In this document: one piece after another, positions 2,146 to 64,000 of the stretch
How the letters are laid out: each line of letters starts with the position of its first letter
Numbering within the stretch: the stretch's first letter is position 1
Origin: Planctomycetota bacterium
Lineage (GTDB): Bacteria > Planctomycetota > B15-G4 > JADJEK01
Length of the DNA: 64,000 nucleotides
Assembly (NCBI GenBank): GCA_044225365.1
Contig: JBGAIQ010000028.1
Location: 1,703-65,702 of the forward strand
Reading direction: 5' to 3'
Notes under the pieces: generated by a model
What the model was told of the DNA's origin: nothing
The model's database searches: none
Seen by the model: only the letters and a program-made list of their open reading frames with translations
Position numbers and translations under genes: made by a program

Positions 2146-5100
2146 TCACCACCCGAAGACGACACTCGCGGAATCGTTGTGAGGGTAGAGGTCGCCATTG
2201 ACTCCCACGGCGACTTGGAAGCGGAACTTGATCCGATACCCGGCGATGAGCATCGATACGACGTTCGAGGTGAGGGGGAGGGAGTCGTTGATCGTCGCGC
2301 TCGGGATCGTGAGTCCGTTCAGCGCAGCGAGTGCGGGGTGATTCTGCGGGAGCGGGAGTTCGATCTCCATCGCGCCCGCGGGGTTGAGCGGTAGAGCGAC
2401 ACCGTTGGGATCGAGGAGCGACGCGTAGAGGTGGGCGGTGTTCCCGGGAGCGGGCGTGAGTGCAGCGTTGTAGACCGTGGTGGAGAGTGCGATCGAGTAG
2501 TTCGTGGCGGCCGAGCCGGTGAGCGTGGCGGTCGTGTCGTGGTTCGAGAGGGCGAGGTCGAACCCGCTCGGTGCAGGCACGCTCTGGAACCACTCGAGTT
2601 CGAGGAGCAGCAGCGACTGCGGTGCGAGGACGACCGTGCTCTTCGTCCCGGCACGATCGTACGTGATGTCGAGCGAGCTGTAGCCGCTCGAGAAGTAGTC
2701 GGTGTTCGGGTCGGCGACTCCGAGACGTTGGTGGTACTTGCCGAAGGCGAGTCGATTCCAGAGTCGGAAGTCGACAGTGCGCGGCGTCGTTTCGAAGTTG
2801 TAGAGCAGCACGCGAAGACGCGGATTCGTCGTGCCTTCCTTCACCGCGAGGTCGTTCACGAGGACCGCGATGTCGACGGGCGTCGCCGCGCTCCCTGGCG
2901 TCTCCCACGTCATGACCGGGCGCGGCACAGCGCTGTCGAGCACGTCCCCCGTGAGCGCGCAGTGGAGCGTGCGGTGCGAGTTGCCGTGGAAGAGGAACGC
3001 GCGGTCGGTGTAGAGCGCCTCGGTCGTACCGAGGGGGAAGTGATTGCGCAGCCAGTTCGCGCCGTCGAGGAGGTCGCCGACGAGCGTCGTCTTGCCCTTC
3101 CGCGTGTATTGCAGCGCCGCGGGGTTCGGGCCGGTCTGAGGAACGGCGAGGTAGGAGAGCGCGGTGTAGCTGTTCGTCGCGAGGAGGCTGTCGATCGAAG
3201 CGAGGAACGAATCGGTGACGTACGGCGTCGTGCCGCTTTGATACGGGTCGTCGATCGCACGGAGATTGGCGTCGGTCGCGATGAACGGACGCAACGTCGC
3301 GAGATTGTCGAGGAAGGCCGACGAGAAGCGCAGCGCGTTGAGTGCCCAGTTCGCGGTACCGACCGTCGTGAGGCCACTCACACTCTGCCCGGCGTTGATC
3401 GCATCGTTGATCGCGATGACGCCCTTGGTGAGTTCGACGGTTGGAACCAGGTACTGGTACGCGGTGGGGCCACCCTGGAAGTACGCCGTGAGGAACGCGC
3501 CGGAGTAGAGGTAAGGCAGCGAGGGAAGGTTCTCGGGGTAGTTGTAACTCGATCCCGCATTGGTCGTAGCGAGCCACCAGGATGCGGGAGGAGCGCCGTT
3601 CATTCCGGTCGCGATCGCGGCGGGAACGAGACCGAGTGGCCGCGCACTCGACGAGGCGAGGGACGCACTGACCCATGAATTCGACCAGGCGCGGATCGCA
3701 TCGCCGACGACGGAGAGCTTTGCGTGAGAGAGTACTTCGTAGGCGGGAAGCATCGCCTTCCCATCGAAGGGCACGTCGACGAACGATTGCGAGAAGGCCG
3801 GGTCCGACGAAGGAGGCGGACCGTCGCTGTTGAAGTAGAAGGCTTGGAAGCGGAGGTTGCCCGTCCCGTCGGCGAGCGCCCACGATTTCGCGGCGTTGCC
3901 GGGATACTGCACGTGCTTCACGACGTCGAGCGACGCCTGCAGGAAATGCGGATCCCCGGGAGCGATACCGAGGCCGGCGCGGATCGGATACGACGTGAAC
4001 TCCGCCGAGTGCTCGACGTCGACGGGCACTCCGCCGTAGTAGCCGTCGTTCACCGTGCTCCCCGAGAGCACGAAGTCGGCGCACTGGAGTAGGGTGTTCC
4101 GAGACGCGACGTCATTCGGCTGGTGCAAGGCGATCAGCGGTCCGTCGAGCAGCGCGACGAGTTCCGGGTCGTCGCCCGAGCCGCCGCCGAACTCGCCGTT
4201 CTGGGCGCGATTCGCGATCCACCAGGCGATGCCGGCGCGATACGCCCGAGCATAATCGCGTTCCGCCGTCGCCCAGGCCGGTGCGCCCGGCGGCGCCGCG
4301 GTCGGTTGCGCGAGCAGCGGCGTCCACCAGGCCTCGGTCGGTTTCACGTAGCTCGACGGGATGTCGGCGCCGGTCCAGTCGTTCCACACGCCACCGTTCG
4401 CGGAATGGACGTGCGAAGCCCCGCTCGCGACCCAACACATGAGGTCGAGGCTGGAGCAACCATCGAATTCGTTGGTGCGAAACCCGCCCGTATCGAAGTC
4501 GGAGAAGACCTTCTCGTAGGCGAGGATGCCGGCGAGTGAGCCCGGATCCGGCGTGCTGCCGTTCAAGTACGAGTGCATCGAGTTCATCGCGTAATGCAGC
4601 TCGCCGACGCGGAACAGCGAGCGGAACGCGAGCGGGAACACCTCGAATCGAGTGTCCGGCTGGGTGTTTGCATTCCACTGGATCACCGGGGAGAGCGTCT
4701 GCATTCCCGCGACCTGGTAGTAGATGTTCTCCGCGAGGTAGAGGTGGCGCGCGGCGTTCGCCGACGTGTTCGGGGTGACCGCGAAGATCGATCCGGGGTA
4801 CGCGGGATTGAAGTACCCGAGCCCTTGCGGCGGCATTGTGTAGGCATTCTCGTAGTTTCGCAGCGAGAAATGCAGCTCCGCGATCTCGTAGTCCTGGATC
4901 CGATCGCGGAACTCGATCGCGCGAGCGTTCGAAGCGAGCGTGGGAGTCGCGAGCGCGGCCTTCGCCTCGGCGAGCGCGGTCGTGAATCCCTTCTCGGATC
5001 CGTCGAACCATCCCGCGAGCCACAGCAGAGCGTGGGCGCGAGTGAGCGGGTCGGAGAGCGCGAGGAACTTCGTATGCGCGGCCGTGAAGTTCTTCGCGTT

Positions 5101-8883: not shown

Positions 8884-11800
8884 GGATCGCGTTCGCCGTA
8901 CTCGGCGGCGCGCTCGTCGTGACGACCGGATCGACCTTCGCGGCGAATACCGCCGAGGCCGACCTCGAGATCTATCGCGCGCTCACGGCCGCTTTGTCGC
9001 GCGCCGAGTTCGGTGCCGTCGACCCGCTCGTCGACGCCCTCACCGGGCCCCGCCACGACGAGAGCATCGCGAAGAAGGCCGAGTACCTGCGACATGCCGC
9101 GCGATTCCTCGAAGGTAGCGAAGGGCCGCCCGCGCAGAGCGGGGTCGTGGCGAGCGCGGGTGCGCTCCAGTTGTCGCTCGCGAACGATCTCGCGTTCGCC
9201 GCGACGACGACGGCATCCCGCGGAATGCACCCGATCCTCTTCGGCCATCCTGCGCCGTTCACGAGCCGCGTGACCTTGCGCGTCGACGACGAGGACCTCG
9301 CGATCTCACCTCGCGCTGTGCTCGGATCCGGTCCCGGGGTGGTGCAGGGGCGTGCGACCGAGCGCGACGTCGAAGTCGTCCTCACCGTCGCGGGCGGTGG
9401 CGCGCCCAGCTGGCATCCCGCAGCCGATGTGCCGTTCGTGCGGATCCAATGCGTCGTGACGAATCGCGGCGCGTCGCCCCGGAAGATCGGCGCCCGACTG
9501 CTCCTCGACCTCTGCGACGGTTTCGACGACGCGCCGGCATTGCACCAAGGCGACGCGCCCACCCTATCCGTGGCGACCGACTACGTCGGTGATGCAGTTC
9601 CGCGGCGACTGTCGTTCGGCCCGCTCTCGGTCGTGATGCGCGGCATCGGCGCACCCGCTCCGGAGCGTGCGCTCGTGGTTCCTCTCCGCCTCGCCCTCGA
9701 CAAGCCGTTCGACTTCGCGCTCGACCAGGACGTGCCGCTCGGCGGCGATTCCGCGCTGCTGCTCTACGCGGACCCGCGAGTGCTCGCGCCCGGAGAATCG
9801 CGGGTCCTCGAAGCCCATATCGGCGGCGACGCGGACGACCTGGACCGTGAGCAACCCCTGCGCAGCGCGCTCTTCACCGAGCCCGTCGCCGGCGATCCGC
9901 TCGCGACACGGGTCGTGCTCGCGATGGAGGCCGGCGCGAAGGGAACCTTGGGCGAGGTCGATGGCGTGCGGGTGACTCCGCGGATCGCGGCAGGGCTACG
10001 TGTGCTTTCTTCTGCAAAGGACTTTGCCCGAATCGGAAGCGTGGCGCGCGGCATGCCGCTCCAGCGTTCGCTCGTCGTACGTCCGGACCAGACGCGCGGC
10101 GGCGCCCTCGAAGTCGCGTTCGACATCGACGGCAGGTTCGGGACGAAGACCCTCTCCCGGCGCGTCGCGACGGCGATCGGGGTTCCGAGTGCCGTTCACG
10201 TCGCGGGCCGCATCGTCGACCTACGTGGTCGCGCGGTGCCGAACTGCGAGATCGTCCTGAAGCAGGCGGGTCGCGACGTCGCGCGCGGCGTGAGCGATGG
10301 GGCGGGGAACTATCGATTCGACGGGCTCGCACCCGGTGAGTACGAGGTCGCCGCGAAGAAGCTCGTCTTCGAACAGCCGGCGGTGAAGGCCGCGCACGAG
10401 GACGTCGATGGTCTCATGTACGACGTCTTCCTGCTCTCGGAGACGATCGACGACGCCGGCCATCCCGTGCTGCCGAAGGTGACTCCCGGCGACGGGCGCG
10501 ACGTGCTCCTCGCCCGGTCGCTCACGCGGTACTGTCTCCTCGTCGGCGTCGAGTGGGACGCGCCGCGCGAATACCTCGAAGGGCTCGCGCGAGGGATGCG
10601 CCGAGCGGCCGAATTCCTGTACGCGGCGTCGGACGGTCAGTTCACGTTCGGCCGGGTCGCGATCCACGATTGCGGCCGCGACTGGATGTCGATCGATCTG
10701 TGGGATTGGGCGAACAACTCCGTGCATCCCAATGCCACGGTCGCCGGGATCCATGAGCGCTTCGATCCGGTCTACCATCCGTGGAACACCGGCATCAATT
10801 TCGGCCGGCAGTGGGCGGGGGCGTGGGATCAGCTCGGCCTCTTCTCGACCGTGTGCCACGAATTCGGGCACTACGGATTCGGACTCTACGACGAGTACCT
10901 CGGCGCGCCGCAGGGCGTCGAGCGCGGGCTGTCGTATCCCGAGATGTGTCGCTGCATCATGGGGTACCAATATTCCGATCACAAGATCTGCTTCGCCAAG
11001 AACCACCGCGCCTACACGAACCAGGGGATGTGGAACGGGCGCAGTTGCTGGGAGCAGCTGAAAGCGAATCACGAGGGCGACCGCAACGGCTTCTACGTGC
11101 CGATCACGACGCCGGCCGAACGCGGCGGAGTCACGCCGCCTCCCGTGGCGAATCACATCGGCGACGAGTTGAAGATCGTCGTTCGCGACGACTCGACCGC
11201 AGGCCATGACGCCCGTCTCGAAGTCGTCGGGCCGTTCGGGCGCGCTCCTCCCGGCATCCCGGTGTACACCGAGATGGTGCACGAGGCGCGAACGGTGTAC
11301 ATGGGCATCACACTCGGAGACGGTGCGCTGACGCTGATGGGAATCCATCCGGGCGACAAGGTGTTCGCGACCTTCAACGGTGCGCGCGCAGAGCTCGTTC
11401 TCGACGAACGGAAGATCCAACCCTTCTCGCTCGAGTTCGGCAGCGAGCCGCGCGAGGGGCGCCGTCCGCCCCTCTCGACCTTCGTGCCCGATGAGGCCCG
11501 CGGCGCGTTTGCCGGCGGCGCACTCGAGATCGAAGACCGCGATGAGAAGGGCAGGCCCCGGAGCAAGCCCGCCGTGACGCGCCTCGACGCGACCCATAAG
11601 CAGCTTCCCGTCATCGCGATCGACGAGACGGCGGGGCGGTTTGTCGCGCAGGCCGACGCAGCATCCTTCGCCGGCGGGCGCGGCGCGTTCGAGATCGTGT
11701 CGAGCGATGCGATCGGCGGCGACGTCACGACCTTGGTCGACGTGACGATCGGCCGCTCCGCCCTCGCAGCCTTCGATGGTTCGCTCGAGGTGCACTCCGA

Positions 11801-12164
11801 TCCGAGTGGTCAGAACAAGGACGCGATCCTCGCGGTGGCGAGCGCCGCCGGTCCACCCTGGGTCGAAGCCCTGGGTGAGGGCGGATCCGCCGCGCCCACG
11901 GGAACGGGTTCGACGGTCGAGTCGATCGGCCGGATCCACGCGATCGCGTCCGGCCGCGCCCTCGGAACACCCGTCGAGGTCGTCGTTCGTCCGCTCGGAA
12001 ACGAACTCGTCGCTGGGGCCATCCCCGAACTGCGCATCCTCGACCCTTCGAGCGGTCGATTCGTTCCTCCGCCGCCGACTCTCGGCGTCGTGGTGGAGCC
12101 GAACGGAGACCGCCATTTCGTTTCGAACCTGCCCCTGACGGTGGCCTGGTTCGTTCGCCGCTGA
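8859..12164 (+). CDS. large secreted zinc metalloprotease-like protein (HEFGH motif, carboxypeptidase-regulatory-like beta-sandwich)
   Basis: ATG 8859 overlaps the upstream gene by 25 nt. N-terminus is signal-like (LRIAFAVLGGALVVTTGSTFA). GRIVDLRGRAVPNCEIVLKQAG...GNYRFDGLAPGEYEV resembles CarboxypepD_reg. HEFGHYGFGLYDEY (nt 10857-10898) resembles the M6/InhA-type HExxH...DEY motif. Confidence 0.7.
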   Translation: MGPTQPVLRIAFAVLGGALVVTTGSTFAANTAEADLEIYRALTAALSRAEFGAVDPLVDALTGPRHDESIAKKAEYLRHAARFLEGSEGPPAQSGVVASAGALQLSLANDLAFAATTTASRGMHPILFGHPAPFTSRVTLRVDDEDLAISPRAVLGSGPGVVQGRATERDVEVVLTVAGGGAPSWHPAADVPFVRIQCVVTNRGASPRKIGARLLLDLCDGFDDAPALHQGDAPTLSVATDYVGDAVPRRLSFGPLSVVMRGIGAPAPERALVVPLRLALDKPFDFALDQDVPLGGDSALLLYADPRVLAPGESRVLEAHIGGDADDLDREQPLRSALFTEPVAGDPLATRVVLAMEAGAKGTLGEVDGVRVTPRIAAGLRVLSSAKDFARIGSVARGMPLQRSLVVRPDQTRGGALEVAFDIDGRFGTKTLSRRVATAIGVPSAVHVAGRIVDLRGRAVPNCEIVLKQAGRDVARGVSDGAGNYRFDGLAPGEYEVAAKKLVFEQPAVKAAHEDVDGLMYDVFLLSETIDDAGHPVLPKVTPGDGRDVLLARSLTRYCLLVGVEWDAPREYLEGLARGMRRAAEFLYAASDGQFTFGRVAIHDCGRDWMSIDLWDWANNSVHPNATVAGIHERFDPVYHPWNTGINFGRQWAGAWDQLGLFSTVCHEFGHYGFGLYDEYLGAPQGVERGLSYPEMCRCIMGYQYSDHKICFAKNHRAYTNQGMWNGRSCWEQLKANHEGDRNGFYVPITTPAERGGVTPPPVANHIGDELKIVVRDDSTAGHDARLEVVGPFGRAPPGIPVYTEMVHEARTVYMGITLGDGALTLMGIHPGDKVFATFNGARAELVLDERKIQPFSLEFGSEPREGRRPPLSTFVPDEARGAFAGGALEIEDRDEKGRPRSKPAVTRLDATHKQLPVIAIDETAGRFVAQADAASFAGGRGAFEIVSSDAIGGDVTTLVDVTIGRSALAAFDGSLEVHSDPSGQNKDAILAVASAAGPPWVEALGEGGSAAPTGTGSTVESIGRIHAIASGRALGTPVEVVVRPLGNELVAGAIPELRILDPSSGRFVPPPPTLGVVVEPNGDRHFVSNLPLTVAWFVRR

Positions 12165-12283
12165 CTTGCGACAGTCCCTTGTCCGACAGTGCTTTTTGGC
12201 ATACACTTGGCGGTCGCCTAGATCCCGACTCTCTCCCCGAGTCGCGATGCCAACGTAGTCTCTCCCAAACAGGAAACCCGAGC

Positions 12284-14155
12284 ATGAAGCGACCGATCTT
12301 CGGCGCAGCGACACTCGTCGCATTTGCGTCCGTGCCCGCTCTCGCGCAGCAGTTCGTCTACAACGCCGCCGCGCTCCCCGCCCAGACCGTCTGGACCAAT
12401 GGCATCGAACTCGCCGATGTCGACGGCGACGGCGACATCGATGCGATCTGCGCCAATGGTAGCTCCTACGGCGCGGGCGGCTCTCAACCGCAGCATCTCT
12501 TCCTGAACAACGGCACGGGCACGTTCACGGCCGCGCATGCCCAGCTCAACGTCGCGAACTTCAACGCGCAGATGGTCATCGCCGAGGACTTCGACAACGA
12601 CGGCGACAAGGACCTCATGTACGCGCCGTCCGGTCCGTACCCGTCGCCCACGGCCCTGCCGAAGATGCTCATCAACAACGGGCTCGGCGTGTTCAACGAC
12701 CAGTCGGCGACGCGCCTCCCGGCGATCCCGATGTCGGCGTTCTGCGTGTGCGCGGGTGATATCGACAACGACGGCGACCTCGACGTCGTCTTCACCGACG
12801 GCGCGAGCAGCCTGAACGGCACCGCGGCGCAGTCGCACCTCTACCTGAACAACGGTAGCGGCTTCTTCACCGACGCCACGGCGACGAACCTCCCCTCGGT
12901 CATCTACAACTGCCAGGACGTCACGCTCGGCGACTGGGACGCGGACTTCGACATCGACATCATCCTCACGGGCAAGGGCGGCGGAAGCCGACTCCTCGTC
13001 AATGACGGCACGGGTCATTTCACGCTGAACACCGTGCTGAACAGCTCGGGTACCAGCCTGACGTACGAAGGCGATCCGGCCGACCTCGATGGCGACGGCG
13101 ACCTCGATATCGCCATGCAGTCGATCTCCGGCTTGAACGAGGGCTGGGTACGCAACAACGGCGCGACCGTGACGAACGTCACGTTCAGCGGCACGAACGG
13201 CGCCGATGACAACGAGATGGCGGCGTTCGACTACGACAACGATGGCGACCTCGACGTGATGGTCGCGTCGCTCGCGTTCTCGAGCGAGAAGGCCTACAAC
13301 AACAATGGCAACGTGTTCACGTTCGCCAACATCTTCCAGGCCCAGACCGACTCCTCGCTCGACTTCGGTTTCGCCGACCTGAACGGCGACAAGAAGTACG
13401 ACATGTACACCGCGCAGGGCGAGTCGGGCAACTTCACCGACAAGGTGTACTTCAACAATGGCCCGGCCGACACGATCAAGCCGACGATCCAGGCGACCAA
13501 TTCGCCGGTCTCGATCGGCGCCGGCGGCACGGTGTTCAAGGCGCGCGTTCGCGACGCGATCGTCGACGACGGACACATCAACGCGACCGCGCGACTCGTC
13601 TACGCGACGAACGACGGAGCGGGCGGCGTGTCCGGAGTGGCGACGGCGATCAATCAGGGCTGCGGTCTGTTCCGCGCCGCGGCTCCTTCGAGCGGCGCGA
13701 CGACGGCCGTTTCCTCGGCCTGGGTCGTCACCGATTCGGCCAAGAACACGTCGGTGACCGCCACCTCGCAGATCGGCGGCGCGAATGGTTGGGCGACGCA
13801 GACGGCGGGCAAGACGGGCGCGAACGGCGTTCCGGCGCTCGTCGGTGCGGGCGACAACTCGGCGAACTCCGCTGGCGTCATCGGCTTGTTCTCGGCGCGC
13901 GGCAATACGACGGCGATCCTGATGATCGGCACGTCGCCCGGTAACGTCGCCCTCTTCGGAGGCACGTTGCTGCCGTTCCCGATCGTCGCCCAGGTCGCGC
14001 TCACGACGAACGCGAACGGGGACGTCGTCCTTCCGTACGTGTTCCCGGCGGGCGTGCCGGCCGGCGTCAACATCTACCTCCAGTACGTGATCCAGGACGC
14101 GGCGGCGACCCAGTCGGTGTCGTTCAGCAACGGCCTCGTGCTCACCACGAAGTGA
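12284..14155 (+). CDS. secreted FG-GAP/VCBS repeat protein
   Basis: Internal ATG 12284 begins MKRPIFGAATLVAFASVPALAQQ. Repeated Ca-binding-like DxDxDGDxD loops are present (DVDGDGDIDAI, DFDNDGDKDLM, DIDNDGDLDVV, DLDGDGDLDIA, DYDNDGDLDVM). Confidence 0.8.
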   Translation: MKRPIFGAATLVAFASVPALAQQFVYNAAALPAQTVWTNGIELADVDGDGDIDAICANGSSYGAGGSQPQHLFLNNGTGTFTAAHAQLNVANFNAQMVIAEDFDNDGDKDLMYAPSGPYPSPTALPKMLINNGLGVFNDQSATRLPAIPMSAFCVCAGDIDNDGDLDVVFTDGASSLNGTAAQSHLYLNNGSGFFTDATATNLPSVIYNCQDVTLGDWDADFDIDIILTGKGGGSRLLVNDGTGHFTLNTVLNSSGTSLTYEGDPADLDGDGDLDIAMQSISGLNEGWVRNNGATVTNVTFSGTNGADDNEMAAFDYDNDGDLDVMVASLAFSSEKAYNNNGNVFTFANIFQAQTDSSLDFGFADLNGDKKYDMYTAQGESGNFTDKVYFNNGPADTIKPTIQATNSPVSIGAGGTVFKARVRDAIVDDGHINATARLVYATNDGAGGVSGVATAINQGCGLFRAAAPSSGATTAVSSAWVVTDSAKNTSVTATSQIGGANGWATQTAGKTGANGVPALVGAGDNSANSAGVIGLFSARGNTTAILMIGTSPGNVALFGGTLLPFPIVAQVALTTNANGDVVLPYVFPAGVPAGVNIYLQYVIQDAAATQSVSFSNGLVLTTK

Positions 14156-41770: not shown

Positions 41771-42010
41771 CGGGCTCTGCCCGGTTCCGGAGGGAAGATG
41801 CCGGGCGGAGCCCGGCGGTCCGTGAGCGCATCCACTCAATTTCCGGAAGGAAGATGCCGGGCGGAGCCCGGCGGTCCGTGAGCGCATCCACTCAATTTCC
41901 GGAAGGAAGATGCTGGGCGGAGCCCGGCGGTCCGTGAGCGCATCCACTCAATTTCCGGAAGGAAGATGCTGGGCGGAGCCCGGCGGTCCGTGAGCGCATC
42001 CACTCAATTC
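41771..42010 (+). repeat. tandem array of 4 x 56-bp units, each carrying a REP-like hairpin, preceded by one inverted partial copy
   Basis: The anchor GATGC recurs at 41797, 41853, 41909 and 41965 (exact 56-bp period). Unit: GGAAGGAAGATGCCGGGCGGAGCCCGGCGGTCCGTGAGCGCATCCACTCAATTTCC. Hairpin: GCCGGGC-GGA-GCCCGGC. An inverted-type copy CGGGCTCTGCCCG lies at 41771-41783. Confidence 0.9.
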
Positions 42011-55569: not shown

Positions 55570-57427
<1,858 letters not shown>

Positions 57428-57505
57428 ATCTCGGCCACTCCATCGACGATGAGCCCGGTTCGCAAGGGGTCTCCGCCGCCCAGCTGCAAAGGACGAAGGC
57501 GAAGG

Positions 57506-60175
57506 ATGAAATCCATGTTCCGCATATCGGCCATTTGGGTCGCAGTACCTGTTCTCGCCGTTTGCGCCGCGTTCTCGGCGGTCGCTCGTGCGGGCGACGT
57601 GTTCACGTTCACGCCGGCGGCGAAGTACAAGCCCGAGGTGCCGACGGTACCGTCGCTCACCGGCTTCCAGGTCGGCGAGAAGTACGTCGACAGCGGCATC
57701 GTGAACCGGGTGGTGACGACGCTCGCCGGCGCATCGGACCGCGTGCGATACGTGCGCTACGGCGAGACCTTCGGCGGACGCACTCTGCAGCTCCTCGTCG
57801 TGAGTTCACCCGAGAATCTCGCGCGGTGGAACGACATCCAGGCGGGGCTCGGGAAGTTGACGGATCCGCGACGACTGAAGGACGACGCCGAGCGCGATCG
57901 CCTCGTCCAGTCGTTGCCCGTCGTGGTTTGGATCTCGTTCAATGTGCACGGGAACGAGGCGTCGCCGACGGAGGCTGCGCTCGCGATGCTCTATCACCTC
58001 GCCGCGGCCGACGATCCTTCGGTCGACAAGCTGCTCGCGAATGCAGTCGTCGTGATGGATCCCTGCGTCAATCCCGACGGCCGCGATCGCTACGTCAACT
58101 GGTTCCGCAGTCGCGTCGGTGCGACGCCGAATCCCGATCCGCAGGCCGACGAGCACGACGAACCCTGGCCCGGCGGACGCGTCAATCACTACTACTTCGA
58201 CCTCAATCGCGACTGGGCGTTCCTCACGCAGATCGAGACCCGATCGCGCATCGCGAAGTATCGCGAGATGATGCCGCAGGTCCACGCCGACCTGCACGAG
58301 ATGGGGCAGAACCAGTCGTACTTCTTCTTCCCCGCGGCGACACCGGTGCACGACGAGTTCCCGCGCGCGACCGTCGAACTCGCGAAGGCCTTCGGTCGCG
58401 GCAACGCTTCGGCATTCGATCGCTTCGGCTGGACGTACTACACCGCCGAGGAATTCGATCTCTTCTACCCGGGCTACGGTGACTCGTGGCCGTCGCTCAA
58501 CGGCGCGATCGGAATGACGTACGAGCAGGCGGGCCACAGCCGCTCGGGCGTCGCGGTCGAACGCGACGACGGGTCGATCCTCACCTTGAAGGATCGCGCG
58601 GCACATCATTTCACGGCCGTACTCGCGACGATCGAGACCTCGGTCGCGCACAAACAGGAACTCCTCGAGTCCTACGCGCGCTTCTACGCCGATGCGATGT
58701 GGGAGGGCGAACGCGGACCGGTGAAGGACTACGTCCTCGTGCCCGGCGTCGACCGGGTTCGGATGACGGACCTCGTCCGGCTCCTGCTCGATCAGGGAAT
58801 CGAGGTGAAGAGTGCGAGCGCGGGATTCCGTGCCGAGCGATGTCACGACTTCGACAGCGACAAGGTCGAGAGCCGCGCATTCCCACCGGGGAGCTACGTG
58901 ATCGAACTCGCTCAGCCTCGCAAGCATCTTGCGAAGGCACTGCTCGAGCCGGCCGCGGCGGTGCGCGAGAACACGTTCTACGACGTCTCCGCATGGAGTC
59001 TGCCGCTCGCGTACGGAGTCGAAGCGTGGTGGACCGAGACCAAGGTCGAAGGCGCGCTCAGCGACGTGACGAGCAAGGATCTCGCGATTCCAACTCCCAC
59101 GAAGGCGATCGCGAGCGCGCCGCGCGTCGGCTACCTCGCGCGTTGGGATTCGTTCGCTGCGCCGCGATTCCTCGCACGAGTGCAGCAGGAGGGCAAGGGC
59201 GGAGTCGAAGTGCGCATCGGCTCGGAGCCCTTCGCCCTCGACGGGGTCTCATTCGCCCGCGGAACGCTCTTCCTGCCCGCCGCGGCGCTCGACGAGTCCG
59301 AGCATGCGCTCGTGCGCAAGATCGCCGCGGAAACGGGCGTCGATCTCATCGCGACGGATACCGGCCTCACCGAACGCGGGCCGAATCTCGGAAGCGGCAG
59401 CTTCAATTTGCTCGCTGCGCCGTCGATCGCGATCGTGACCGGGGAGGGAACGGATCCTGGTGCCGTCGGGTCGTTGCGATTCCTCCTCGAGCAACGCTAC
59501 GGCTTCCCATTCACGCAGATTCCGCTCACGCAACTCTCGCGCGTCGACTTGCGCCGTTACAACGTCCTCGTGATGCCCGAAGGGTTCGGGTACTTCCGCG
59601 AGATCCCGCGCGCCAAGGATGCACTCACGCGATTCGTCTCCGACGGCGGCGTTCTGATCGGGATGGGAAGTGCGGCATTCGCGCTCGGTGACGACGGCGC
59701 GAAGATCGTCGGCGTGAAATCGGGCGAGGCCGACGGGAAGGCGCAGGAGCCGCCCAAACCGGCGGGCTGGAAGAAGCTCGCGGAGCGGCGTCTCACTTCG
59801 CTCGAGGATGCCGTCCCCGGAACGATGTTCCGACTCGAACTCGATCCCGCACATCCTCTCGCCTACGGCTACGACCGGCCGCTCGCGGTCCTCATGGATT
59901 CGCCGCGCGCGTTTGCGTTGGAAGGGCCGGGAACGCGGGTTGGCGTGTTCCCGAAGCAGTCACTCCTCGCCGGATTCGCATCGACCGAGAACGCGGCGAA
60001 GCTGGACGGGAAGGCGTTCCTCGCCGACGTTTCCTTGGGTTCAGGTCATGTCGTGCTCTTCGCAGGCGATCCGACGTTCCGCGGCTTCGTTCGCGGTCAG
60101 GTCGGCATCCTGATGAACGCGATGCTGCTCCTCACGCAGCCGATCCCGACGCCAGCGCCTCACGCGCTCCGCTGA
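57506..60175 (+). CDS. secreted M14-family metallocarboxypeptidase-like protein (~889 aa)
   Basis: Internal ATG 57506 begins MKSMFRISAIWVAVPVLAVCAAFSAVARA. WISFNVHGNEASPTEAAL (HxxE zinc site) and the DLNRDW segment are typical of M14. Confidence 0.8.
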   Translation: MKSMFRISAIWVAVPVLAVCAAFSAVARAGDVFTFTPAAKYKPEVPTVPSLTGFQVGEKYVDSGIVNRVVTTLAGASDRVRYVRYGETFGGRTLQLLVVSSPENLARWNDIQAGLGKLTDPRRLKDDAERDRLVQSLPVVVWISFNVHGNEASPTEAALAMLYHLAAADDPSVDKLLANAVVVMDPCVNPDGRDRYVNWFRSRVGATPNPDPQADEHDEPWPGGRVNHYYFDLNRDWAFLTQIETRSRIAKYREMMPQVHADLHEMGQNQSYFFFPAATPVHDEFPRATVELAKAFGRGNASAFDRFGWTYYTAEEFDLFYPGYGDSWPSLNGAIGMTYEQAGHSRSGVAVERDDGSILTLKDRAAHHFTAVLATIETSVAHKQELLESYARFYADAMWEGERGPVKDYVLVPGVDRVRMTDLVRLLLDQGIEVKSASAGFRAERCHDFDSDKVESRAFPPGSYVIELAQPRKHLAKALLEPAAAVRENTFYDVSAWSLPLAYGVEAWWTETKVEGALSDVTSKDLAIPTPTKAIASAPRVGYLARWDSFAAPRFLARVQQEGKGGVEVRIGSEPFALDGVSFARGTLFLPAAALDESEHALVRKIAAETGVDLIATDTGLTERGPNLGSGSFNLLAAPSIAIVTGEGTDPGAVGSLRFLLEQRYGFPFTQIPLTQLSRVDLRRYNVLVMPEGFGYFREIPRAKDALTRFVSDGGVLIGMGSAAFALGDDGAKIVGVKSGEADGKAQEPPKPAGWKKLAERRLTSLEDAVPGTMFRLELDPAHPLAYGYDRPLAVLMDSPRAFALEGPGTRVGVFPKQSLLAGFASTENAAKLDGKAFLADVSLGSGHVVLFAGDPTFRGFVRGQVGILMNAMLLLTQPIPTPAPHALR

Positions 60176-60205
60176 GGCCGAGCGACTCGAACCCGTTCTC
60201 GTCGT

Positions 60206-60240
60206 GTGCGCGCATGAAACATGGCGCGCACGAATTTCTC
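60206..60240 (+). terminator. candidate terminator after the M14 gene
   Basis: GTGCGCGC (60206-60213) pairs with GCGCGCAC (60224-60231). The stem can extend through ATG/CAT to an AAA loop. Followed by GAATTTCTC. Lies 31 nt after the stop. Confidence 0.4.
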
Positions 60241-60520
60241 CCGCGTTCCCGCCTCCGATCAGGTCCGGCACGCGAGCTGGTCGATGAACCTTGCGCCGAG
60301 GGAACATGCCAGCAGAGAGGTGTTCCTCCGGGCGCGGAAGTTGGGAGAACGAGGGCTGTGTACGACTGCGTCGCCGCTGAAAAAAACATTCCCTGACCAC
60401 GGCGGTGATGTGGTGATCGACTGGCACGCACCCAGGCGATCCTCAGCTCGGTCTTGAACGATGATTCGCGCCGCGCGGCCTGTTCCTTGGGCGGGACAGG
60501 TCGCGCGCTCTCTTTTCATC

Positions 60521-60646
60521 GGACCGCCGGGCTCTGCCCGGCTCCGATCCCATGCCGGGCGGAGCCCGGCGGTCCCGCATTCGGGCCGACTTCCTGCGGG
60601 CGCGGTTTCCCTACACCGTACCGATGCCGGGCGGAGCCCGGCGGTC
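60521..60646. repeat. REP-like hairpin elements: one inverted plus two direct copies
   Basis: GGACCGCCGGGCTCTGCCCGGC (60521-60542, inverted orientation). ATGCCGGGCGGAGCCCGGCGGTCC (60552-60575). ATGCCGGGCGGAGCCCGGCGGTC (60624-60646). Same core as the 41.8-kb array. Confidence 0.9.
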
Positions 60647-60651
60647 GGTTG

Positions 60652-60846
60652 CTACTTGTCGGCGATGTCCTCGCGGCCGTAGCGACGATCGCCTTCGAAC
60701 TCGCCGAGTTCGAGGTCGAGCTCCTCCGCGGGCTTCTTCGGGTCTTTCGCGCGCACGATCTTCAACAGGGGATCCTTGTTCGGATTCCCGTGCGTCTTCT
60801 TCTCGGCGTCGGATTTGTTCTCGCGTGCCTTGTCCGCCATCGTCAT
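60652..60846 (-). CDS. acidic/charged 64-aa peptide (candidate precursor peptide B)
   Basis: The ATG overlaps the stop of the upstream mini-ORF (ATGA). High GC3. Product is MTMADKARENKSDAEKKTHGNPNKDPLLKIVRAKDPKKPAEELDLELGEFEGDRRYGREDIADK. Confidence 0.6.
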   Translation of the reverse strand: MTMADKARENKSDAEKKTHGNPNKDPLLKIVRAKDPKKPAEELDLELGEFEGDRRYGREDIADK

Positions 60847-61007
60847 CGCTCCTGTCCGGTGAAGCCTTCCTTCAATCGATCGCCGTCGCCGATCTCTTCG
60901 AGATCCAGATCGAGTTCGTCGGTGTCGTTCTCGATCTTCTCGGGTCTCGCCGGTGCGGTGTTCTCCTGCGAGTCCTCCGCGGGCTCCTCGTCCTTCTTGC
61001 GGATCAC
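60843..61007 (-). CDS. acidic 54-aa peptide (candidate precursor peptide A), hidden in the tail of a shadow ORF
   Basis: GTG 61007 overlaps the rSAM stop (GTGA) and lies 6 nt after AGGAGG. Product is (M)IRKKDEEPAEDSQENTAPARPEKIENDTDELDLDLEEIGDGDRLKEGFTGQER. Shares an ELDL-x-L-x-E motif with peptide B. Confidence 0.55.
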   Translation of the reverse strand: MIRKKDEEPAEDSQENTAPARPEKIENDTDELDLDLEEIGDGDRLKEGFTGQER

Positions 61008-63232
61008 TTGCCCACCTCCTGCGCGATCTCCGCGGGGAGGCGAGTTGCCTCCGCGAGGCCGCGCTCGAACAACGAGAGGATGAACTCGCGCACCGCGCGG
61101 CGCTTCGTCTCGGGGTACCGCGCGAGGATCTCGCCGACCGTCCGATGGCCGTCGAGCGACGCGAGGATCGCGGCGGCGTCCTTTCCGATGCGCAGCAGGT
61201 CCGACGACTCGCCGCGAAAGACGACCGGGGTGCGCGACGGCGGAGCAGGCTCGATCACGTCGCCGAGTTGCTCCAGCATCTCCGTCTTGAACGATCCCGA
61301 TTGATAGCGGGGGCGAAGCGTGCGGTCCTCGGCGTCGAGCAATGTCTTGCTCACCGCCATCAGGTCGTACGGCAGATCCCGGACGACGACTCCCTCCGCG
61401 ATTCGCGGTTTGGCGAGGTCGAGCGGAACCGGCGGGAGCTTCGCGATGGCCGGCGAGCTGCGGCCTTCGAAGACGTCGAGCGTGCCTTCGCGACAGAGCC
61501 ACAGGAAGTGATGGCTCTTCAGCTCGAAGAGCCAGAGGTTGTCGCCCTGGAACAACGGGAAGTCGCGGCGCACGACCTCCATGAAGTCGAAGAAAACGGC
61601 GCGAGCCTGCGCGCGGTTCATCCCCACCGAGCCGTCGTGGTCGTAGTAGACCTGATAGTCCTTCGTCGCGTCGTGATGGACCTTCGTGATCTGGAAGCGC
61701 TCGGGATGCGCGTACACGGTGGAGAGCAGATCGATGTAGAAGATGCGCAGCGAGACTTCCTGGATCAGATGACGGTGGGTCCGGATCCACTCGAGAGTGA
61801 GTCGGGCCTCTTCCTCCGTCTCGGTCGGGAAGCCGATCATCGTGTAGAGCACGACCGCGATGCCCGCGTTCGTAATGTTCTCCAGGATGCCTTCGGCCTC
61901 CTCGATCGCAGTTCCCTTCTCCATCAGGTCGAGAACGCGCTGGCTCGCCGATTCGAAGCCGAGTGCGATTCGCCGGCATCCCGCCGCGTAAAGCCGCTCG
62001 CACAGTTCCTTCGTGTAGAGATTGCGTTCGAGTCGAGCGTCGGTCCACCACAGGATGTTCAGATTGCGGCGAGCGAGCGCGTCCGGGAGATTGCGGAAGA
62101 GGACCGGCGGCATGTCCTCGACGACGAAGTACACGTAGTTGCTGTTCCAGCGGGTCGTGATCTTCTCGATGTCGTCGAGGATCTTCTCGAGGTTGCGCTG
62201 GCGGTAGCCCGGGCCGATCACCTTGTAGAGCGTGCAGAACACGCACTTCTCGTAGTAGCAGCCGCGCGTGATTGCGAGCGGCAGTGCGATGTGCGGCGAG
62301 AAGTAGCGGTCGAAGGGCATGCCTTCGAAGTCCGGCGTCGGCAACGAATCGATCTCGAGCGGCGCGACGGACTTGTTCGTCACGACGACGCCGTCGGCGT
62401 TCCGCCACACCAGGTTGCCGATGTCGGATAGGCCCGCTCCGCTCTCGATCGCGCGAGCGAGTCCGAGGAGCGGGCCTTCGCCCTCGAGCATCACGACCGA
62501 ATCGATGACGTCGAAGACCTTGCCGGATTTCGCGACCTTGGCGCCCGCATACGCGAGCAACCCGCCGCCGATCGTGATGTGGACCTTGGGCAGCTTCTCC
62601 TTGATCATTCGCGCGAGCGTGAATGCCGGGATGATCATCGAACCGTAGGTGATCGAGATGCCGATGAGATCGGGCTTCGCCTCGACGATGCTCGGAATGA
62701 CGACGTTCGAGTAGAACTCGGCGTAGAGGTTCTCCGAGGTGTCGAAGATCGCGGCGAGGACTTCCGATTCGCGTTCGATCGAGTAACGCATCGAGAAGCT
62801 GTTCGGCGAGAGGACCGTCGGGTACCACTCCGCCGAGATCAGCTTGAACGCGCGATCGATCCGCTTCACGGCCTTGACGTACTCGTCGTAGTCGTAGAAG
62901 CGTTCCTTGTCGCGAAGCGTCGCGATCGCGTCGTCGATCCCGGCGACCACACTGTCGGCGGCGAGATCGGCCTCGGCGAGCGTGCGGAAGCGATCCATCG
63001 CGTCGAGCGGGAGCGGCGCGTCGCCTTCGAACTTCGCGAGCGCGGCCCGCACACGATCGCGGGCGAGGCCAAGGCGCGCGGGCGAGAGGAAGTACTCGAG
63101 CGACTCGAGGTTGAGGTCCCGCTGATGCGTGTCCGGGAAGCCGTTGGCTTTCAAGTACGCGGTGAGCGACGGAAGCGCGAGGTACGGCTGGGTGAAGTGC
63201 GCCTGCGGCGGGAAGAGGAGAAGGGTGCGCAT
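61004..63232 (-). CDS. B12-binding-domain radical SAM protein with C-terminal PqqD/RRE-like domain
   Basis: N-terminal MRTLLLFPPQ...LIGISITYG...KVHITIGGG is B12-binding-like. The radical SAM cluster motif is RGCYYEKCVFC (nt 62231-62266). The C-terminal LLRIGKDAAAILASLDGHRTVGEILARYPETKRRAVREFILSLFERGLAE is PqqD-like. Confidence 0.85.
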   Translation of the reverse strand: MRTLLLFPPQAHFTQPYLALPSLTAYLKANGFPDTHQRDLNLESLEYFLSPARLGLARDRVRAALAKFEGDAPLPLDAMDRFRTLAEADLAADSVVAGIDDAIATLRDKERFYDYDEYVKAVKRIDRAFKLISAEWYPTVLSPNSFSMRYSIERESEVLAAIFDTSENLYAEFYSNVVIPSIVEAKPDLIGISITYGSMIIPAFTLARMIKEKLPKVHITIGGGLLAYAGAKVAKSGKVFDVIDSVVMLEGEGPLLGLARAIESGAGLSDIGNLVWRNADGVVVTNKSVAPLEIDSLPTPDFEGMPFDRYFSPHIALPLAITRGCYYEKCVFCTLYKVIGPGYRQRNLEKILDDIEKITTRWNSNYVYFVVEDMPPVLFRNLPDALARRNLNILWWTDARLERNLYTKELCERLYAAGCRRIALGFESASQRVLDLMEKGTAIEEAEGILENITNAGIAVVLYTMIGFPTETEEEARLTLEWIRTHRHLIQEVSLRIFYIDLLSTVYAHPERFQITKVHHDATKDYQVYYDHDGSVGMNRAQARAVFFDFMEVVRRDFPLFQGDNLWLFELKSHHFLWLCREGTLDVFEGRSSPAIAKLPPVPLDLAKPRIAEGVVVRDLPYDLMAVSKTLLDAEDRTLRPRYQSGSFKTEMLEQLGDVIEPAPPSRTPVVFRGESSDLLRIGKDAAAILASLDGHRTVGEILARYPETKRRAVREFILSLFERGLAEATRLPAEIAQEVGK

Positions 63233-63268
63233 GTGCGCATCGTAACGGCGAGGATCGCCTGGAGGCCA

Positions 63269-64000
63269 CTACTTCCCGAGCAGGCGCTTCAGCAGCTCCT
63301 CGAGTCGCCGGTTCTCCTCTTCCAGTTGCTTCAGGACGTCGGCCGGGTCGGCGCCGTTCGCCTTCTTCGCGGCCGCGGCGTCCTCGATCTCGGCCTTCAG
63401 GATCCGGTTCCGCCGCACCGCGTCGATCGCCTCGCGTAGAGGATCGCTCTTCGGCAGCGTCGCGAGAACGAGATCGCGGCTCTTCTTCACGAGCGCGACG
63501 AACTGAGTGAAATCGGGATCGTTCAAGGTCGGCGCGAGCGATTCGCTCGACTTCACGAGGTCGTCGAAGGAGTCGGTGAGCGCGTGCGTGCTGCGACGCA
63601 GGAACTCTGCGAACTGAGCGACGAGGACACTGCGGCGGAAGCCGAGCGATGTGGCATCGAAGCTCTTTGCCTCCTGGTTCCCGAAGACCGCGCAGCCCGT
63701 CTCGCCGGGCGAATCACCGCGGCCGTGCGGCGGGAGCCAGCGCACGCGGGACGTCACGGCAGGCGTCGCGCCGCCGTTGCCGAATTCCGCCGCGGGCTCG
63801 ATCTCGTAGAGCGCGCAGACCTGCGCCCCGGCGCCGAGTTCGCCGGCATCGACGGCGTCGTTGCGGAAGTCCGCCGCGGCGAGCGCGCGGTTCTCGTACC
63901 CGAGCAGACGGTAGCGGGCGATTTGACGCGGATCGAATTCGACCTGGATCTTGACGTTTCGGGCGACGGGTTGGAAGGCGCCGGAGAAGCGATCGACGAT
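63269..64000 (-). CDS. von Willebrand factor type A / DUF3520 (YfbK-like) protein, 5' end outside the window
   Basis: The frame is open to the window edge. VKIQVEFDPRQIARYRLLGYENRALAAADFRNDAVDAGELGAGAQVCALYEI is the characteristic DUF3520 segment. The track entry 63269..63757 is only an internal GTG. Confidence 0.8.
   Translation of the reverse strand: MVDRFSGAFQPVARNVKIQVEFDPRQIARYRLLGYENRALAAADFRNDAVDAGELGAGAQVCALYEIEPAAEFGNGGATPAVTSRVRWLPPHGRGDSPGETGCAVFGNQEAKSFDATSLGFRRSVLVAQFAEFLRRSTHALTDSFDDLVKSSESLAPTLNDPDFTQFVALVKKSRDLVLATLPKSDPLREAIDAVRRNRILKAEIEDAAAAKKANGADPADVLKQLEEENRRLEELLKRLLGK

Follow-up and report, generated by a model that had tools for sequence, protein, structure and literature searches.

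A 64,000-nucleotide stretch of Planctomycetota DNA (contig JBGAIQ010000028.1; this whole stretch is called the window below) carries a gene for a cobalamin-type radical S-adenosylmethionine (rSAM) enzyme whose end overlaps the start of a small gene, peptide A, which overlaps in its turn the start of a second small gene, peptide B. Our results suggest that both small open reading frames (ORFs) are almost certainly real genes, and that the three genes are likely to form a minimal operon, in the order rSAM-A-B, of the type that yields peptides made on the ribosome and modified after translation (RiPPs). That the two peptides are the substrates of the adjacent enzyme appears at least as likely. 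The enzyme is a class B rSAM protein with a C-terminal PqqD-like RiPP recognition element (RRE) and without a SPASM domain, and in both peptides an alternating hydrophobic motif precedes an invariant C-terminal tail by a constant distance. An earlier note on this DNA, made from the sequence alone, had pointed out the two ORFs and proposed a leader and core organization for them; the analysis presented here confirms the observation and supports the interpretation.

Organization of the rSAM-A-B cassette

The rSAM gene (61004..63232, minus strand) encodes 742 aa and ends in GGC AAG TGA. Peptide A (60843..61007, minus strand; 54 aa, (M)IRKKDEEPAEDSQENTAPARPEKIENDTDELDLDLEEIGDGDRLKEGFTGQER) starts with a GTG at 61007 that overlaps the rSAM stop codon as GTGA, and its TGA (60843-60845) overlaps the ATG of peptide B at 60846 as ATGA. 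Peptide B (60652..60846, minus strand) is 64 aa long from this ATG and ends in ...ELDLELGEFEGDRRYGREDIADK. Re-reading the sequence reproduced both overlaps, the exact 54-aa sequence and the 64-aa frame as the earlier note had given them, and corrected one distance: the Shine-Dalgarno sequence AGGAGG for peptide A (61015..61020, minus strand), which lies within the 3' end of the rSAM gene, is separated from the GTG by 7 nt and not by 6. The start of peptide B may also need correction. A GGAG precedes ATG 60846 by 2 nt and a second ATG, at 60840, by 8 nt; from the latter a 62-aa form (MADK...) would be read. Because of the 8-nt distance, because the orthologues of peptide B start with M[STA]DKA... 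and because the protein database entry is the 62-aa form, the shorter form may represent the real peptide B.

Start/stop overlaps or short gaps are likewise the gene borders in the rSAM-peptide cassettes of other loci. The GC content by codon position of the two ORFs (0.69/0.35/0.78 in A and 0.63/0.34/0.86 in B) resembles that of coding sequence, exemplified by the rSAM gene itself (0.64/0.41/0.88), in a window of 66% GC; the high third-position values remarked on previously are therefore those just given, 0.78 and 0.86. Also as remarked previously, peptide A has no entry of its own in the mechanical ORF list and forms there the end of an 808-aa shadow ORF (60843..63269).

Conservation of peptides A and B

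Profile searches of protein databases retrieved 76 A-type and 87 B-type clusters, all of 33-92 aa, all unnamed or annotated as 'hypothetical', and all from Planctomycetota metagenomes and metagenome-assembled genomes (MAGs). A HMMER search over 1.84 billion representatives returned 25 B-type representatives (clustered at 50% identity), all of 33-73 aa, and no larger protein containing a B-type sequence. Neither peptide matched any Pfam or NCBIfam family at E-values up to 0.1.

The genomic loci agree with these searches. Scanning a genome collection with the single rSAM protein yielded one true relative (L001, a Phycisphaeraceae MAG with an rSAM 71% identical to that of the window), in which both ORFs are present in the same order and on the same strand, with tails identical to those of the window (...RLKEGFTGQER and ...GDRRYGREDIADK). 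A and B were found in frame behind the rSAM in L003 (77% identity), L004/L005 (58%), L013 and L087-L091 as well. The earlier note had named a lack of conservation behind orthologous rSAM genes, or frame-disrupting differences in close relatives, as observations that would speak against the two genes; instead, A and B are in frame behind the orthologues at 56-83% identity.

Within the last 7-10 codons of the peptides, differences per site amount to 0.43-0.63 at synonymous and 0.03-0.08 at non-synonymous positions, about a 10-fold excess (0.63 vs 0.05 in the tail of A; 0.55 vs 0.08 in that of B). Since synonymous differences far exceed non-synonymous ones, the tails are, judging from these rates, under purifying selection that acts on the protein and not on the DNA. 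That both ORFs are kept in frame, and in this order, behind the rSAM orthologues is, by these comparisons, far beyond chance, and A and B are in all probability translated small proteins.

Linkage of the peptides to enzyme clades

A metagenome scan, queried only with an alignment of rSAM homologues, was much more productive than the scan with the single protein and returned 80 loci. The linkage was counted over loci whose rSAM is at least 38% identical to that of the window and for which enough downstream DNA was available. A small acidic peptide ORF is located downstream on the same strand in 26/26 of these loci and is adjacent to the rSAM gene in all except L021, where it lies 3.8 kb away (25/26). 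Judging from the sequences, the peptide type co-varies with the enzyme clade: enzymes of 56-83% identity are followed by A and B, those of 42-47% by a single peptide, type C, which ends in FEDVADK (...FVFKIAPADPKNSFDFEDVADK), and those of 38-40% by a single peptide, type D, which ends in SETNVFDK (...LDLSIETVEERISPSETNVFDK). Matching lengths of the longest contig in the database entries also suggest that A, B and rSAM sequences come from the same contigs.

None of the more distant relatives, with 35% identity or less (L033, L037-L086), has an acidic peptide of the four types alongside. These enzymes are mostly 600-760 aa long, and their match to the window enzyme usually stops near residue 520-590. 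Because they lack the peptide, the peptide-linked enzyme family appears to end near 38% identity. In two of them (L071 and L084, about 31-32% identical and without an acidic peptide), an ORF that resembles acyl-CoA-binding proteins by eye is found directly upstream of the rSAM (112-423 and 4733-4993, respectively), a hint that neighbouring rSAM clades may act on lipids.

Anatomy of the peptides

The peptides have three parts: a variable, low-complexity, charged and proline-rich N-terminal region of 30-40 residues, an alternating hydrophobic motif, and an invariant C-terminal tail. The motif is LDLDL in types A, B and D and FVFKI in type C. In peptide A of the window it is LDLDL (aa 32-36; 60900..60914, minus strand), 18 residues before the C-terminus, and in peptide B it is LDLEL (aa 43-47; 60706..60720, minus strand), 17 residues before the C-terminus. 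These distances are nearly constant, as 73/76 A-type sequences have [LF]D[LF]x-hydrophobic at exactly 18 aa from the C-terminus and 86/87 B-type sequences have LDLxL at exactly 17 aa; in types C and D, the spacing is 17 aa in most of the sequences inspected.

Within each of the four types, the last 7-10 residues do not vary. The proposed core of peptide A is KEGFTGQER (aa 46-54; 60846..60872, minus strand) and that of peptide B is YGREDIADK (aa 56-64; 60655..60681, minus strand), and the corresponding patterns, KEGF[TS]GQEx and [YF]G[SR]EDIADK, are found in 76/76 and 87/87 clusters, respectively. An acidic-basic C-terminal dipeptide (DK or ER) is common to all four types, as is a Glu that is conserved at 6-8 residues from the end. 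Each type has one conserved aromatic residue: counted from the C-terminus, type A has F at -6, type B has Y at -9, type C has F/Y at -7 and type D has F at -3. Peptides A and B contain no Cys.

The earlier note had called A and B paralogous on the basis of a shared acidic motif. The motif is recovered by BLASTP, which aligned 16 residues (TDELDLDLEEIGDGDR / AEELDLELGEF-EGDR; E 0.018), and by the comparison of the two family profiles with hhalign, again over 16 columns (probability 61%, P 8e-5). Paralogy therefore holds for this stretch and is not supported for the full-length peptides, as the similarity between the profiles spans only those 16 columns: the relatedness of A and B appears limited to the acidic LDLDL motif, the sole element that they share. 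In window-clade peptide B, aa 22-35 (60742-60783) read DPLLKIVRAKDPKK, which resembles FVFKIAPADPKN of the single-peptide type C, as if peptide B were a type C peptide into which an LDLDL-containing segment had been inserted ahead of the EDIADK tail.

The fixed distance between motif and C-terminus fits a leader recognition element placed ahead of a core, and the proposal that the motif is the leader element gains from its being the only part common to A and B. The companion proposal, of divergent tails acting as cores, stands in that the tails of A and B differ from each other; among orthologues, in contrast, each tail is invariant and not variable. The division into a recognition sequence and a core, as expected of an RRE-dependent RiPP precursor, is read from conservation only.

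A class B radical SAM enzyme with a C-terminal RRE

At least 120 homologues of the rSAM protein were found at 41-83% identity, all of about 740 aa. The Pfam domain Radical_SAM (PF04055) matches aa 321-483 (E 5.7e-18, 66 bits) and includes the Fe-S cluster motif C325-x4-C330-x2-C333 (CYYEKCVFC; 62234..62260, minus strand), whose three cysteines are invariant in alignments of 18 and of 88 sequences. N-terminal to this core is a B12-binding domain (aa 178-257; 62462..62701, minus strand; PF02310, E 2.1e-7). The window enzyme scores 31.2 bits for it, just below the cut-off of 32.1, and the domain matches 18/18 family members (best E 9.9e-10). A three-cysteine rSAM core preceded by a B12-binding Rossmann domain is what defines class B rSAM enzymes. 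SPASM gave no Pfam match in the window enzyme and, since only C411 and C419 are conserved besides the cluster motif, the domain is absent; neither the auxiliary Cys-rich domain of SPASM/twitch maturases nor, for the thioether types, the substrate Cys is found in this system.

The RRE that the earlier note had assumed does exist at the C-terminus (about aa 665-730; 61043..61240, minus strand). In the window enzyme itself, the match to PqqD (PF05402; aa 675-726) is weak (E 0.023); across the family, 13/18 members match (best E 3.4e-6). In the full-length AlphaFold2 model (pLDDT 89.9, pTM 0.90), the C-terminal region is composed of three strands and three helices. When the domain was modelled alone (pLDDT 84), its top 10 Foldseek matches in the PDB, all with weak E-values, were RRE proteins, including TbiB1 with its leader peptide, PqqD, CteB and TfuB1 (probability 0.63-0.97, TM-score up to 0.61 on the target), and PbtF, TfuB1 and LynD were among the weak top matches of its sequence profile. 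Therefore, a PqqD-like RRE is supported by Pfam, by the topology of the model and, with those weak E-values, by Foldseek, and it accompanies a short precursor-like ORF beside a modifying enzyme, as in RRE-dependent RiPP pathways.

For the full-length model, the best PDB matches were the cobalamin-dependent rSAM enzymes OxsB, TsrM, MgmA and CysS (E 3.6e-15 to 6.6e-13), with AprD4 also among the matches (E about 1e-10), all at 12-17% identity. The best NCBIfam match was TIGR03975 (E 8.5e-34), which covers aa 161-531 and thus the B12 and rSAM domains.

Proposed mechanism

In the mechanism that we propose, the RRE would bind the LDLDL or equivalent alternating motif as an added beta-strand, in agreement with the general mode of RREs, which bind their precursor as a fourth strand (PMC10635010). 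The spacer of 17/18 residues would act as a ruler that guides the invariant tail into the active site, where the enzyme would modify one tail residue through a 5'-deoxyadenosyl radical, probably together with methylcobalamin. The likeliest single chemistry would be C-methylation of an unactivated carbon, because this is the usual role of B12-dependent rSAM enzymes in RiPP pathways and because of the precedent of ApyD, an RRE-containing B12-rSAM that beta-methylates the penultimate Tyr near the C-terminus of ApyA (PMC10635010). By this analogy we would place it slightly short of an even chance, and a cross-link or another radical reaction is possible instead. Candidate sites would be the conserved aromatic residue (F/Y), present in all four types, or, in types B, C and D, which end in DK, the Ile/Val at -4. 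Chemistry of the thioether, sactipeptide or ranthipeptide kind, which the earlier note had thought unlikely from the missing Cys, was rejected, as the peptides have no Cys and the enzyme is of class B without SPASM. A biaryl cross-link like that of PbsB is unlikely with one conserved aromatic residue per core.

As for the product, a housekeeping molecule (a cofactor, a signal or a metal-binding peptide) is more likely than a variable antibiotic, because the tails are invariant across the phylum and no protease or exporter is linked to the cassette.

Several points weigh against the peptides being substrates modified in this manner, or make the reaction difficult to name. We infer the binding and the modification from sequence, structural models and analogy. 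A single enzyme would need to accept two unrelated tails, and B12-rSAM enzymes also form C-C cross-links, as PbsB does, and carry out other reactions. The cysteines of the cluster motif are spaced as Cx4Cx2C and not as the usual Cx3Cx2C; OxsB has the same spacing in the HMMER alignment. The Foldseek E-values of the RRE domain range from 0.16 to 1.7, even though the top 10 matches are all RREs. The enzyme is not a member of any curated family tested and falls far below every named cut-off (117 bits against 281.85 for TIGR03975, 111 against 600 for the PhpK family and 73.8 against 750 for ApyD, NF050148); because of these scores, its chemistry is not transferable by homology. Finally, the annotated flanks of the relatives have no protease or exporter, and no second tailoring enzyme, that is conserved across clades; a dedicated leader peptidase or exporter, common and not universal in RiPP pathways, was thus not found here.

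Alternative explanations

The simplest alternative, that the ORFs are chance open frames or part of a 3' untranslated region, would be consistent with the abundance of short ORFs in DNA of 66% GC, with the appearance of peptide A only inside a long shadow ORF and with the absence of the window's own peptide A from the protein database. It is refuted by the 163 conserved clusters, by tails that stay invariant despite frequent synonymous change and by an order and strand that are conserved in every locus, and we regard its probability as negligible. If A and B are genes, they could nevertheless be small acidic accessory or regulatory proteins (chaperones, inhibitors or adaptors), in which case the rSAM would act on a lipid, another protein or a small molecule. 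The peptide-free relatives at 35% identity or less, some of them beside the acyl-CoA-binding-protein-like ORF, would suit such a role, as would the difficulty of fitting two different tails into one active site. An RRE fused to an enzyme has, however, no known role besides the binding of precursor peptides; the fixed distance from the motif to a free, invariant C-terminus fits the delivery of a substrate, and the peptide type follows the enzyme clade. We consider an accessory role very improbable.

A related possibility keeps the peptides as substrates and makes them sacrificial scaffolds for a small cofactor or metabolite, as in the pathways of pyrroloquinoline quinone (PQQ) and mycofactocin: the rSAM would modify one or two tail residues, general proteases would excise the product, and exported FG-GAP/ASPIC lipoproteins encoded next to many of the cassettes would be its candidate users. 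The invariance of the tails across the phylum, as in PqqA and MftA, speaks for this, and so do the PqqD-type RRE on the enzyme, the cassette's lack of a dedicated protease, exporter or immunity gene, and the coupling of an FG-GAP_3+UnbV_ASPIC lipoprotein gene upstream in 11/14 type C loci and its presence downstream in L004. Nevertheless, nine or more invariant residues exceed the need of a precursor for a cofactor of one or two residues, equivalents of PqqB/C/F or MftD/E/F are not conserved, the enzyme is of class B and not a SPASM protein like PqqE or MftC, and in the window-clade relatives with annotated flanks (L003 and L087) no FG-GAP gene is found near the cassette. The scaffold explanation is therefore judged improbable, if less so than an accessory role, and we favour peptides A and B as precursors whose tails are modified by the adjacent enzyme.

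Comparison with known systems

By architecture, the closest known system is ApyD/ApyA of the aminopyruvatide pathway of Burkholderia thailandensis, which likewise combines an RRE-containing B12-rSAM with a short precursor that has a conserved C-terminal motif. The Apy cluster differs in its additional enzymes, a multinuclear non-heme iron oxidative enzyme (MNIO), a cytochrome P450 and a methyltransferase, whereas the rSAM is the sole enzyme of the window cassette. The peptides are also unrelated, the Apy taxa are Pseudomonadota and Actinomycetota and not Planctomycetota, and the window enzyme reaches only 73.8 bits against the ApyD cut-off of 750. The best-scoring curated family, TIGR03975 (rSAM_ocin_1), contains RiPP C-methyltransferases, although the window enzyme, with 117 bits against 281.85, is a non-member. 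That family is known with long leaders of the Nif11/NHLP type; here, in contrast, the leaders are acidic and short, and an RRE is part of the enzyme itself, at its C-terminus.

PbsB, from a biphenomycin-like pathway, joins two ortho-tyrosines, which an MNIO has prepared, through a C-C cross-link (PMC12257519). The similarity, by description, is that of a RiPP-pathway B12-rSAM whose targets are aromatic residues within a short, conserved motif; the difference is that the cores here have one conserved aromatic residue and no MNIO is present. In conservation pattern, the closest systems are PQQ (PqqA/PqqD/PqqE) and mycofactocin (MftA/MftB/MftC), which share a small precursor whose C-terminal part is invariant, an RRE of the PqqD type, an rSAM enzyme, and a conservation that is lineage-wide rather than strain-variable. 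In contrast to the window enzyme, with its B12 domain and no SPASM, PqqE and MftC have SPASM and no B12 domain; moreover, no downstream tailoring enzymes are found here, and the enzyme carries the RRE as a fused C-terminal domain. OxsB, TsrM, MgmA and CysS, the best structural matches of the full-length model, are distant at the identities given above (TM-score 0.34-0.60), act on small molecules or a folded protein (MCR), and have no RRE named in their PDB descriptions.

Our literature searches found no paper that contains the tail sequences in its full text or describes the system, and publications on B12-rSAM enzymes, RREs and Planctomycetes gave only analogues such as ApyD, PbsB and the clavusporins. 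What is new is thus a precursor family with four core types together with an uncharacterised clade of RRE-fused class B rSAM enzymes.

Genomic context

In the annotated window-clade relatives (L003 and L087/88), the cassette is followed by a convergent gene for an M14 carboxypeptidase-like protein and then by genes for LOG (Lysine_decarbox) and TGT. ORFs of the window match these by position (about 57500-60175, plus strand; 56741-57427 and 55570-56778, minus strand). This synteny is confined to the clade of the window (window, L003 and L087/88) and absent elsewhere, so a role of the M14 peptidase as the protease of the pathway is not supported. Both peptides of the window end in a basic residue, an observation that we note beside this carboxypeptidase-like neighbour.

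Upstream of the rSAM, the neighbours vary between relatives. In the window, the upstream gene (63269-64000, minus strand) runs off the end, and its C-terminal part is weakly similar to YfbK_C (vWA-type). In the A+B clade of 57% identity, a gene for a small Nitro_FeMo-Co protein (PF02579) of about 110 aa is the immediate upstream neighbour of the rSAM in 5/9 A+B loci (L004 7684-8004, L089 5054-5383, L090 4883-5236, L091 4692-5033 and L013 741-1070). The five proteins cluster together and are PF02579-like where scanned, with the domain undetected in L091; the window has no such protein. Among the type C loci, the 11 of 14 mentioned above have, immediately upstream, a gene for an FG-GAP_3+UnbV_ASPIC protein of about 590 aa (for example L006 6223-8004 and L011 3205-5004, with the same position in L012, L014, L016 and L024). 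Its stop codon overlaps or abuts the rSAM start where coordinates were read, and its N-terminus appears lipoprotein-like by eye in 5/6 of the proteins examined. In L004, an FG-GAP protein (10811-12538) is found directly downstream of the peptides. The link to these lipoproteins is a lead and not a finding.

Behind the stop codon of peptide B, GC-rich hairpins (60521..60646, minus strand) are formed by a 21-nt palindromic element, GCCGGGCGGAGCCCGGCGGTC, with 7 copies in the window against 0.05 expected. Three copies lie just past peptide B (60522-60542, 60554-60574 and 60626-60646) and form strong hairpins, and four are part of a tandem array of 56 nt x 4 at 41785-42009. From its sequence and distribution, the element looks like an intergenic repeat of the repetitive extragenic palindromic (REP) type. 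The hairpin region includes a 22-nt inverted repeat with 95% complementarity and has an RNA folding z-score of -4.75. These hairpins are probably the 3' end or a stabiliser of the rSAM-A-B transcript, a terminator role being deduced: no U-tract follows them on the minus strand, and a strong terminator-like hairpin with a T-run occurs only once, facing the plus strand. A scan for sigma-70 promoters gave no sites, and a search of 60000-64000 for riboswitches and RNA families gave no credible match, only sub-threshold matches of microRNA models on the hairpin.

Implications

Peptide A starts with a GTG within the 3' end of the rSAM gene and can be missed by a gene caller, as happened in the window, and genome-mining tools now label all such peptides 'hypothetical'; the four types provide these tools with a new precursor family. 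If the peptides are the substrates, the cassette would be an unusually clean system, in which a single enzyme and its one or two substrates are combined with an obvious recognition motif and a spacer of fixed length, and a tractable test case for the positioning of a C-terminal core by an RRE-fused B12-rSAM. Its conservation across many uncultured Planctomycetota offers a lead to a modified peptide that is conserved in this phylum, the cell biology of which is little understood. Such a peptide, made by the one RRE-fused enzyme with its ruler of 17-18 residues, could give rise to a cofactor, signal or metal ligand that is used widely in Planctomycetota and works with the FG-GAP/ASPIC lipoproteins of the sister clade. 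We give this a low, though not trivial, probability; if true, it would constitute a new class of RiPP-derived housekeeping molecule, of a standing comparable to PQQ or mycofactocin.

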